Assembly (NCBI GenBank): GCA_951406725.2
Contig: OX597822.1
Coordinates: 56,668,001 to 56,732,000 of the forward strand
Length of the DNA stretch: 64,000 nucleotides
Direction: 5' to 3'
Source of the DNA: Octopus vulgaris
Taxonomy: Eukaryota
Of the stretch, positions 28,664-45,725 are shown one piece after another. The position numbers and the translations under genes are program-made. The notes under the pieces are model-generated. The model ran no database searches. It was not told where the DNA came from and saw nothing but the letters and a program-made list of their open reading frames with translations. Each line of letters begins with the position of its first letter. Position 1 is the stretch's first letter.

Positions 28664-28715
<52 letters not shown>

Positions 28716-29144
28716 AATTGTTATCGCCATATTAATAAGGCATTCTTATAGATATAAGAATAATCGCTGCCGCTGGTCAGCTCCATGAGGCCACCGCCTT
28801 AAGATAGCTATTGATACACGATCTGTATCCATTATAACCTTCGAACAAGGGAGGTCAGCCGCTTCACACTGCCAGTCCGACAGCTACAGACGCGTTTCGG
28901 GGTATTGCCCCTTGTCAATGTAGCGCAGTCAGACCCCGCAGGTGTCGCCACTGACGTCTCTGTTCGAAGGCTTATATTTACCTAGTTTCAGTGGAATACA
29001 TCCACTTGTTTTCAATAATAGAAATATTAAAATTACTAAGTCTCTATAAAAGAGTTTACGACAGCGTTTACTGGAAATTAATTGTTATCGCCATATTAAT
29101 ATGGAATTCTTATAGATATAAGAATAATCGCTGCCGCTGGTCAG
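28716..29144 (-). mobile_element. Retrozyme-like non-coding element: 364-nt unit plus 65-nt partial tandem repeat, containing a hammerhead
   Basis: Direct repeats 28716-28780 and 29080-29144 (2 mismatches); internal hammerhead; ends in (TA)n. Confidence 0.65.
28883..28924 (-). ncRNA. Minimal hammerhead ribozyme, U3:A8 core variant
   Basis: GCUACA-UUGACAA-GGGG(CAAUA)CCCC-GAAAC-GC-GUC-UGUAGC: perfect stems I and II, palindromic stem III (ACGCGU), GUC site. Confidence 0.8.
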
Positions 29145-29520
29145 GGAGAAATGCTTAGAGGTATTTCATCTGCCGCTACGTTCTGAGTTCAAATTTTTGC
29201 CGAGGTCGACTTTGTCTTCCATCATTTAGGGGTCGATTAAATAATTACCAGTTACGCACTGGGGTCGATATAATCGACTTAATCCGTTTGTCTGTCCTTC
29301 TTTGTTCTCTCTGTGTTTAGCCCCTTGTGGGTAGTAAAGAAATAGGTATTTCGTCTGCCGCTACGTTCTGAGTTCAAATTCTGCCGAGGTCGACTTTGAC
29401 TTTCATCCTTTCGGTGTCGATTAAACAAGTACCAGTTACGCACTGGGGTCGATGTAATCGACTTAATGCCTTTGTCTGCCCTCTCTATATTTAGCCCCTT
29501 GTAGGCAATAAAGAAACATA
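29145..29520 (+). mobile_element. Tandem dimer of Meta-domain-like SINE with AGCCCCTTGTGGGTAGTAAAGAAATA tail
   Basis: Two units joined at AAATAG|GTATTTCGTCTG. Confidence 0.8.
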
Positions 29521-43361: not shown

Positions 43362-44851
43362 ATGGAAGGACTGAAATATATTTTCATAATTTTTCTGTTA
43401 AAAATTTACGTCCATGCAGAAGACCCGATTATTCAAACTAATAAAGGTAAGATTAAAGGATCAACAGTTTTAATTCAAGGTGTTGAAGTTGATGTCTTTC
43501 TTGGAATACCATTTGCTCGACCTCCCGTTGGTAATCTAAGATTTAGACATCCTCAACCAGCTAGACCATGGTCTGGTGTGAAAGAAACAAAGAAATATGT
43601 TTCGTCGTGTGTACAAGTTAAAGACACTACATTCGGGGACTTTGAAGGTGCAGAAATGTGGAATCCAAATACTGTTATGAGCGAAGATTGTCTTTATTTG
43701 AACATTTGGGCGCCATCAGAAGCAAGAAAGTCTCGTTCACAGTTAGCTACCATGATTTGGATATTTGGAGGTGCATTTATGTCTGGATCAAGCACGCTGG
43801 ATATATATGATGGACGATGGTTAGCTGCTAGTGAAAATGTCATCGTTGCATCACTAAATTATAGATTAGGACCATTTGGCTTCCTTTCCTTGAATAACGT
43901 ACGTGCTCCCGGTAACATGGGATTATTAGATCAAACCCTTGCTATACAATGGATTCGTGATAACATTTTATCGTTCGGTGGCGATCCTAAAAAACTGACA
44001 CTATTTGGAGAAAGTGCTGGTTCTGGATCAGTTAGTCTGCACGTCGTTTCCCCACTTTCTCAGAGGCTTTTCAGGAATGCTATTATGATGAGTGGTTCGG
44101 CAACAGCAACGTGGGCAACTGTGCCTGTAGAGAAAAACATTGAAAGAGCGAAAGTGATGGCTGATTTCCTTAAGTGTCCAACCGAGAATACTACATCGAT
44201 GATAGATTGCTTTCTAGAAGCTGATGCTCATAAACTTGCAAACGCGCAGTTTCATAATTTAGATAGTTTCCTACCTTATACTTTAAGCCCTATTGTTGAC
44301 GGCGCTTTCTTGACACAGAAACCAATAGAATCTCTGAAAAATGAACCACAGAAAAAGGATGTGTTACTTGGCTATGTCACAAACGAAGGAACCTATTTTC
44401 TTATCTATGATCTACCGAAATATTTCTCCTTGAAAGGAACTGTTCCGATAAACAAATCTACCGCAGGCAAATTGATTAATAAGGTAATCGCACCGTTACG
44501 TGCAAATTCTGTGCAGTTGGATTTAATATCTTATCTTTATGGTTCTCATGTCTACGGCTCTTCTGAAACTGACAAATACAGATACATATTGGACCAAGCA
44601 TCAGGAGATGTCAAATTTAAATGTCCTGTTATCGAATTTGCCCAGGAATACAGCAAACATGCCAAAGTTTATATGTATTCTTTCGAATTTCGATCGAGAT
44701 TAAATCCTTGGCCGGAATGGGCCGGTGTGATGCATGGGTATGAGATTGAATTCCTATTTGCTCAAACGTTATCTGGAAAAAATTATTCAAAAGAAGGAAA
44801 TTTAGTAACAAAAAGGACGACAAGTCTTTTTGCAAACTTTTCTAAGTCGGG
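43362..44851 (+). CDS. ache: Acetylcholinesterase-like cholinesterase, first and major coding exon (protein incomplete at the C-terminus)
   Basis: Signal-peptide-like N-terminus, FLGIPFA, EMWNPN (W84), SEDCLYLNIW, FGESAG (Ser codon 44013-15), NEGTYF (Glu), GVMHGYEI (His). Polypyrimidine/AG acceptor at 43330-31; GTAAGT donor at 44852 after ANFSKSG. Orthology to canonical ache is not established. Confidence 0.93.
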
Positions 44852-45187
44852 GTAAGTTTACTTTGCTTTGTTATATTATTGTCTTTCATTTGTTTTAAAT
44901 TCTTATTCTCCCGATCTTATTCCATCTACAAAAGAATGCACATTCATTCACTGCAAACATGTGCCGTCTTTATATACACACCATGTACTCACATATACAT
45001 ACACTCACAAACTCACATGTACCACCATCCCACAAAATCCTACGCATATACAGACATTATTATGATAATGTAAAGTAATTCATTTGGAAATTAATGTATA
45101 AATGATTTATTTTAACAATATGTGTGTATTCTTTTATTCTTTTATACGTTTCAGCCCTACGGCAAAAGCCATGCTGAGGCATCACAG

Positions 45188-45276
<89 letters not shown>

Positions 45277-45564
45277 TGTGCGTGTGCGTGTGCGTGTGTG
45301 TGTTGTACCTGTGTGTGTGTGTAGAAGATTGAAAAGGAACACACGAGTTGATATGTATGAGGAAAATAAGTTTTATTATGAAGAACATTTTAGTAACGGT
45401 TCCAGTTAGAACCCACAGATGTAAAAAAAGAGAGAGAAAGAGAGAGAGAGGCAGAAAAACGAAAATGTCCCTCGCATTTGAAAATATGGAAATATATTTT
45501 TAAAAAAACATTTCATTTAATTTCATTTAATTTTTCCACAATTTAATTGTTTTTCATACTTTAC

Positions 45565-45606
45565 TCTAAGTTGAAAAAGTCGCAATGACTGAAACCGGTA
45601 CTAAGA
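45565..45606 (+). ncRNA. Minimal hammerhead ribozyme, U3:A8 core variant, sense in the cholinesterase intron
   Basis: UCUAAG-UUGAAAA-AGUC(GCAAU)GACU-GAAAC-CG-GUA-CUAAGA; palindromic stem III (ACCGGU); one A.A mismatch in stem I; (TA)n about 50 nt downstream. Confidence 0.7.
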
Positions 45607-45653
45607 TGTTCTTGATAAAATCATTTTAGTATTATCTGCCTTGTCTTATTTTC

Positions 45654-45725
<72 letters not shown>

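Follow-up and report, generated by a model that had tools for sequence, protein, structure and literature searches.

Is a hammerhead motif on the sense strand of an octopus gene a working part of that gene, or the remains of something that inserted there? The question arises in the window, by which we mean the whole 64,000-nucleotide stretch of Octopus vulgaris DNA analysed here, where a 42-base minimal type I hammerhead motif, identified by sequence parse and by a strict descriptor, lies in the large intron of an acetylcholinesterase-like gene (Table 1). The reading that we favour, with a probability of about 0.87, is that this motif (hereafter the 45565 motif) is the hammerhead of a truncated pseudo-LTR (pLTR) of a Penelope-like element (PLE), that it has its U3:A8 core from the element lineage, and that it probably sits in the intron as an inert passenger.

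The host gene and its intron

Over 496 amino acids, the large coding exon of the host gene and a carboxylic ester hydrolase of O. vulgaris are 100% identical. The donor GT stands at 44852 and the following coding exon lies ~14.7 kb beyond the end of the window, so that the host intron measures ~33.9 kb; counted from 44852, the motif is therefore 714 nt into the intron on the sense strand, in agreement with the ~710 nt given by the first-pass annotation. RNA-like contigs from three studies reach the exon end at 44851 and then continue elsewhere, exactly at the donor. These contigs come from three runs whose RNA nature is guessed, and contigs as such cannot reveal cleavage ends; those listed over 45520-45613 differ at 6-9 positions and were taken as paralogs. 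As to the layout of the gene, 497 residues are coded by this one exon, with a pair of short coding exons ~34 and ~41 kb further on.

Table 1. Features of the window and of one related locus (positions in the window unless a locus is named).
Feature	Position	Strand	Basis
Hammerhead motif, minimal type I, 42 bases	45565-45606	+	Sequence parse and strict descriptor
Stem I 5' arm, TCTAAG	45565-45570	+	Sequence parse
Core UUGAAAA, U3 to A9 (U3 = 45571, A8 = 45576)	45571-45577	+	Sequence parse
Stem II, AGUC/GACU, 4 bp, loop GCAAU	45578-45581/45587-45590	+	
GAAA	45591-45594	+	
Palindrome ACCGGU, 2-nt loop III	45594-45599	+	
A17 of GUA, predicted cut 3' of A17	45600	+	
Stem I 3' arm, CTAAGA	45601-45606	+	
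Pyrimidine-rich tract ending in AG directly before the core	45540-45570	+	Sequence; candidate 3' splice site by appearance
Large coding exon, acetylcholinesterase-like gene	43362-44851	+	Protein match; RNA-like contigs leave at 44851
3' pLTR of PLE subfamily A, 5'-truncated, ending in (TA)n	45407-45656	+	82% match with the 3' terminus of L007
Inverted 5' piece of the same PLE (GAAAC-tail-5' UTR)	~45320-45406	-	27/31 identical to 45588-45618
U3:A8 hammerhead near 28.9 kb, UUGACAA core, one monomer of a non-LTR retrozyme family of ~362-364 bp	28883-28924	-	
Edited-looking core, young PLE family	L062:716-728	sense on minus strand	Three contig ends

A hammerhead motif beyond chance

The perfect 4-bp stem II, the palindromic ACCGGU and the GUA site that had been claimed for this motif were all found in the parse. 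It has the PLE-type core, with a Watson-Crick 3:8 pair, GAAA and an NUH site (GUA), and stem I forms five of its six pairs around a single A.A mismatch. Could this nonetheless be a chance likeness in AT-rich sequence? The isolated 42-mer folds weakly, at -4.4 kcal/mol, and the hammerhead family is absent among the best 150 of 235 Rfam matches at E<=10, both of which would fit such a view. Against it, the strict descriptor, which finds two matches in the whole window, this one and the minus-strand motif near 28.9 kb, gives only 0.027 matches per shuffle over 150 block-wise dinucleotide shuffles of the window, with a U:A core in none; and the genome-wide pattern TTGANAA-N10..24-GAAACSSGTH (U3:A8) returns 10,946 matches against 237 for its reversed control, both counted without a stem filter. 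The stems also covary across families: in an alignment of 11 hand-picked, equal-length sequences from among the matches listed (10 distinct, and with the relatedness that inflates such scores), 88.5% of cells are paired as against 32-42% in slid controls, both partners vary in 11 of 13 pairs, and the score is reached by none of 500 shuffles. For stems I and II, both partners vary between families in all ten pairs (82% and 90% of cells paired, respectively); of the ten distinct sequences, nine have U-A and one has C-G at the 3:8 pair. The motif's place in a pLTR is, moreover, the reported site of PLE hammerheads.

Because of the match counts and the covariation, we consider the chance reading already refuted, its remaining likelihood being negligible; the earlier judgement that a chance origin was improbable was thus well placed. 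At the level of sequence, the 45565 motif is confirmed as a non-chance U3:A8 type I minimal hammerhead, and the position of its cut, after 45600, is a predicted one.

The parent element is a truncated Penelope-like retrotransposon

The 250 nt that contain the motif align to the 3' end of a paralog (L007) that codes GIY-YIG further upstream, and also to the 3' end of an intact sister element (L061). Immediately upstream stands an inverted piece of the same PLE, which aligns to the hammerhead tail and 5' UTR of L061 and which, in the pre-mRNA, is complementary to 45588-45656; the insertion is flanked by microsatellites, (GT)n and (TA)n runs. The window copy is thus a PLE in direct-plus-inverted arrangement, 5'-truncated and with microsatellites alongside, much like the tandem and inverted 5'-truncated, microsatellite-flanked insertions described for PLEs (PMC8557442).

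How widespread is this element? A 161-nt query against the genome gave 1,877 candidates, 40 of which were scored, with paralogs at 85-93%; paralogs of the 45565 copy are 76-91% identical to it, with a median of 82% over 36 loci. This is a dispersed, decaying repeat and not the single-copy sequence of a conserved host-gene intronic hammerhead. A gene-specific element at 45565 is likewise ruled out, the motif being the 3' pLTR of a dispersed PLE family. The first-pass annotation had let its case depend on paralogs that conserve the stems, and the hammerhead architecture is indeed kept among them; in a search that put no constraint on positions 3, 7 and 8, U3 and A8 were present in 55 of 55 exact family matches.

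The longer paralogs extend upstream into broken frames with YLDD (RT) and GIY-YIG motifs. Pfam recognised GIY-YIG (PF01541) in two of five broken ORF pieces, one of them above cut-off at E 4.8e-5, and nothing in the other three; one paralog ORF piece matches ~750-aa proteins annotated as RT + GIY-YIG, at up to 66% identity. The EN+ PLE order, RT with a C-terminal GIY-YIG upstream of the 3' pLTR, is therefore present in the paralogs and in the sister family, and absent from the truncated window copy. No intact copy of subfamily A was seen among the loci examined, so the link to a full element goes via the truncated paralogs and the sister family.

This sister family, ~81% identical in DNA to L007, has open ORFs and is still young. 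A protein-query search for the ~750-aa RT + GIY-YIG product gave 60 scored places without stops, and 25 of the 30 that were fetched belong to it, their RT frames differing by 0-1.4% from that of L061. A U3:A8 hammerhead lies downstream of the ORF in 24 of these 25 loci, with upstream copies in direct orientation at seven loci and inverted at four, which is the hammerhead-in-pLTR arrangement of EN+ PLEs. The other five fetched loci (L051-L055) form a second open-ORF PLE family, where the patterns used found no hammerhead within 1.5 kb. EN+ Neptune-type PLEs carry an RT followed by a C-terminal GIY-YIG, a Cys-rich linker and hammerhead pLTRs (PMC8557442), and ORF2 of L061 has a CX4CxxC linker near residue 650, within the Neptune-type CX2-5CxxC form; the element would thus be Neptune-type by its linker motif. 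On the minus strand of L061, ~150 nt downstream of the upstream hammerhead, there is a ~410-aa ORF that overlaps the 784-aa RT/GIY-YIG frame in another frame, which suggests a two-ORF or frameshift layout; EN+ Neptune PLEs as described in PMC8557442 differ from the octopus family by this extra ORF upstream of the RT frame. PLEs have been annotated in O. vulgaris, their 336 recently active insertions falling into 31 families, in a paper whose main text uses neither the word 'ribozyme' nor the word 'hammerhead' (PMC13282606).

U3:A8 cores are abundant and not confined to one family

The first-pass annotation had seen in the window two independent hammerheads with the same double substitution. 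Their independence stands, as the sequences are unrelated and the 28.9-kb motif belongs to a separate tandem retrozyme family; the sameness holds for the U3:A8 swap, which is common to both, and fails at N7, where UUGACAA differs from UUGAAAA. The 28.9-kb motif is 85-97% identical to tandem arrays at two loci (L091 and L092), and its family is built as non-LTR retrozymes are, from non-coding repeats of ~300-400 nt in tandem that each carry a hammerhead; the 45565 motif is single and PLE-derived. In the window, 28691-29160 comprises a retrozyme monomer and a 68-nt repeat, and a further copy lies at window-equivalent position 132332. Two ~360 bp tandem retrozyme families (L091, L092, L107) have a near-identical hammerhead layout, one with U3:A8 and the other with C3:G8, and little sequence likeness outside it.

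Is U3:A8 then the dominant core of this genome? Comparisons of 3,496 with 49 matches, and of 10,946 with the 408 (control 290) returned by the C3:G8 version of the same pattern, suggested as much; the idea was overturned by a loopless C3:G8 pattern with 26,578 matches (control 3,962; those listed fall mostly into a few families) and a long-stem C3:G8 pattern with 760 (control 126). The raw C3:G8 total of about 27,700 exceeds the U3:A8 count, and U3:A8 dominates only among motifs that combine a 2-nt loop III with a short stem II. Across 526 kb, largely from loci selected beforehand, the stem filter let through neither loopless U3:A8 motifs nor mixed U:G or C:A cores. The 20 stretches around listed pattern matches contain several unrelated families with differing stems I and II, and two U3:A8 families (L097 and L105) adjoin other PLE ORFs. 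The U3:A8 core is thus abundant genome-wide, in several unrelated families.

With such numbers, the rarity that the first-pass annotation had implied for the motif falls away, all the more as the swap is already published: natural C3-G8 to U3-A8 covariation was reported in several hammerheads, with earlier in vitro activity cited (Perreault et al. 2011, PMC3088659). Whilst that report describes several examples, in octopus entire transposon lineages are fixed for the swap. A close precedent is that of the Cercyon PLEs of Schistosoma mansoni, with ~1,300 U3-A8 minimal hammerheads in pLTRs, mostly single motifs for which dimers are thought to be needed (Cervera & De la Pena 2014, PMC4209133). 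The octopus motif shares with them the covariation and the pLTR location. It differs in host and element family, in a pattern count ~8-fold higher, in combining a 4-bp stem II with a 2-nt palindromic loop III where the common Schistosoma minimal hammerhead has a 7-8-bp helix II, and in the occurrence of the U3:A8 core also in tandem retrozyme arrays, unlike Cercyon as described there (PMC4209133). Retrozyme arrays are present in a mussel (PMC7229834), and those of Xenopus are associated with PLEs and under-represented in introns (bioRxiv 10.64898/2026.07.22.740005). Further metazoan motifs are catalogued in the supplements to the Schistosoma study (PMC4209133). In the main texts of the mostly open-access literature searched, we found no report on octopus U3:A8 hammerheads. 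The octopus motif is a PLE pLTR hammerhead in the published U3:A8 variant.

A splice acceptor before the core?

An AG closes the pyrimidine-rich tract before the core, and it does so right before the core in subfamilies A, B and C alike, the tract ending in TTAG and TTACAG in the sister subfamilies. One might ask whether the motif is kept in this PLE lineage mainly as a 3' splice site, or as a protein-binding pLTR fold, with a hammerhead that is weak or vestigial. The idea concerns subfamily A above all, whose stem I has 2 bp before the mismatch; splicing would swap the 5' arm of stem I, and a possible upstream donor, TTTTAG/GT, would make stem I 6 bp long. Besides the shared tract and AG, it can draw on the Penelope element of D. 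virilis, in which the 5' arm of helix I holds the mapped end of an intron (PMC4209133), a position resembling that of the octopus AG. The two hammerheads are also alike in a short palindromic helix III, a 2-nt insertion and a helix I of down to 2 bp; the D. virilis helix II has 6 bp with a bulge (PMC4209133), and in octopus no splicing was seen at the AG.

One of 40 loci has a deletion that starts at the putative donor: in the subfamily A copy L032:1640 (minus strand), ~200 nt are missing from exactly TTTTAG/GT onwards, as could result from splicing or from deletion at a microhomology. The predicted junction is present in no genomic copy, however, the nine pattern matches being seven unspliced subfamily B copies and two unrelated sequences; among the rows listed for three RNA-like runs, neither a joint nor a loose end falls at the AG, and the contigs read straight through. 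The AG is also explained by stem I pairing, with a U-A/C-G exchange between B and C, and it is missing from other U3:A8 families. We therefore hold conservation chiefly for splicing or protein binding to be unlikely. A stem I activated by splicing is unsupported, with no spliced genomic copy and no joint among the RNA-like contig rows listed.

Is this copy active?

Where the helix III of a PLE hammerhead is short and palindromic, the active form in tandem transcripts is believed to be a dimer (PMC4209133; PMC6765202); single minimal hammerheads of PLEs gave no cleavage, and dimers low cleavage only (PMC4209133). When two copies of the octopus 42-mer are cofolded, their ACCGGU palindromes pair between the copies, as a palindromic helix III would. 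By extension from published PLE work, two motifs of an intact tandem PLE would pair through ACCGGU into a double hammerhead, which would slowly cut the precursor RNA after GUA and release unit-length RNA. The 45565 copy has no such partner: we found no second convincing sense-strand hammerhead in the host intron, where a weak match at window-equivalent 69885 is without the palindrome. In addition, the inverted upstream arm, transcribed first, would pair with the GAAAC/cleavage-site segment. Folding of 45320-45660 predicts just this pairing, with probabilities of 0.01 for stem II and 0.0 for stem I, and forcing both stems costs 21.8 kcal/mol, as against 11.4-15.3 kcal/mol without the inverted arm. 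With the cleavage segment masked and no partner at hand, the active fold would rarely form and the intron would be spliced normally. The weak stem I of subfamily A, one pair of which is in this copy a private mutation, and the decay of the paralogs likewise speak for silence. Separately, the 3' arm of stem I can alternatively pair with a tail segment ~25 nt downstream (45600-45629, in subfamilies A and C), possibly an inhibitory hairpin.

The opposite view is one of exaptation, in which the copy would cleave the acetylcholinesterase pre-mRNA and thereby adjust its splicing or the amount of mRNA. It would be in keeping with a sense-strand position so close to the donor, and with a core, stem II, palindrome and GUA that are all intact in this copy; of 37 paralog motifs, counted at loci mostly chosen by the upstream part of the motif, just 13 have kept the GAAACCGGUA segment whole. 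It would also fit a private A>G at 45605, a position that is A in 37 of 37 paralog motifs and G in none; on the sequence, this adds one stem I pair (C-G, 45566/45605) to the otherwise weak stem I of subfamily A. Set against this are a helix III of 2 bp, the missing partner and the predicted masking, whilst one intact copy among thousands is to be expected and in all three studies the contigs depart from the exon at the donor. Exaptation thus seems very unlikely to us, and the cutting of the intron envisaged by the first-pass annotation is not what a lone, decayed transposon end with a site predicted to be masked would lead one to expect. The spliced contigs are compatible with partial cleavage of the intron, and the model that we prefer is of a passenger copy, predicted from folding and from published analogues to be inactive in the acetylcholinesterase transcript.

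Amniote intronic hammerheads are single-copy and ultraconserved. The octopus copy, a member of a dispersed, decaying repeat with no stable helix III, is unlike them. It does resemble the hammerheads conserved in amniote introns in being a sense-strand hammerhead in a large intron of a protein-coding gene (PMC6765202).

Possible A-to-I editing of the core

Coleoids are marked by high A-to-I editing. In three contig ends from two RNA-like runs of different studies, the young-family core UUGAAAA is read as UUGGGGG, with four A>G changes, exactly on A6-A9. No copy within two mismatches of the UUGGGGG-core form occurs in the genome, where the young-family pattern has 2,278 matches and 100 of the 100 listed are unedited. 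Each of these ends spans only 9-10 letters and derives from another animal, the runs are guessed to be RNA, and for the DNA run the loose ends considered are those listed. We could speculate that octopus harbours a large, still-young lineage of PLEs and retrozymes with A-rich U3:A8 hammerheads that the host switches off by ADAR: inverted pLTRs would make long double-stranded RNA, and editing would turn UUGAAAA into UUGIIII. We regard this as doubtful; in the literature searched, we found no published report of ADAR-silenced U3:A8 hammerheads.

Implications

The 45565 locus is itself a transposon remnant of little significance, and its value lies in the class to which it points. Hammerheads of the giant squid have been counted via Rfam (PMC6962438). 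As the first-pass annotation foresaw, searches restricted to CUGANGA miss U3:A8 cores: ~10,700 excess matches would go undetected, so that ribozyme censuses of the O. vulgaris genome fall short, by as much as about one third of the matches counted. The young open-ORF family and the tandem retrozyme arrays offer natural pairs of U3:A8 and C3:G8 hammerheads on similar scaffolds for a comparison of rates. If the editing proves true, it would link cephalopod RNA editing to the control of transposon ribozymes.
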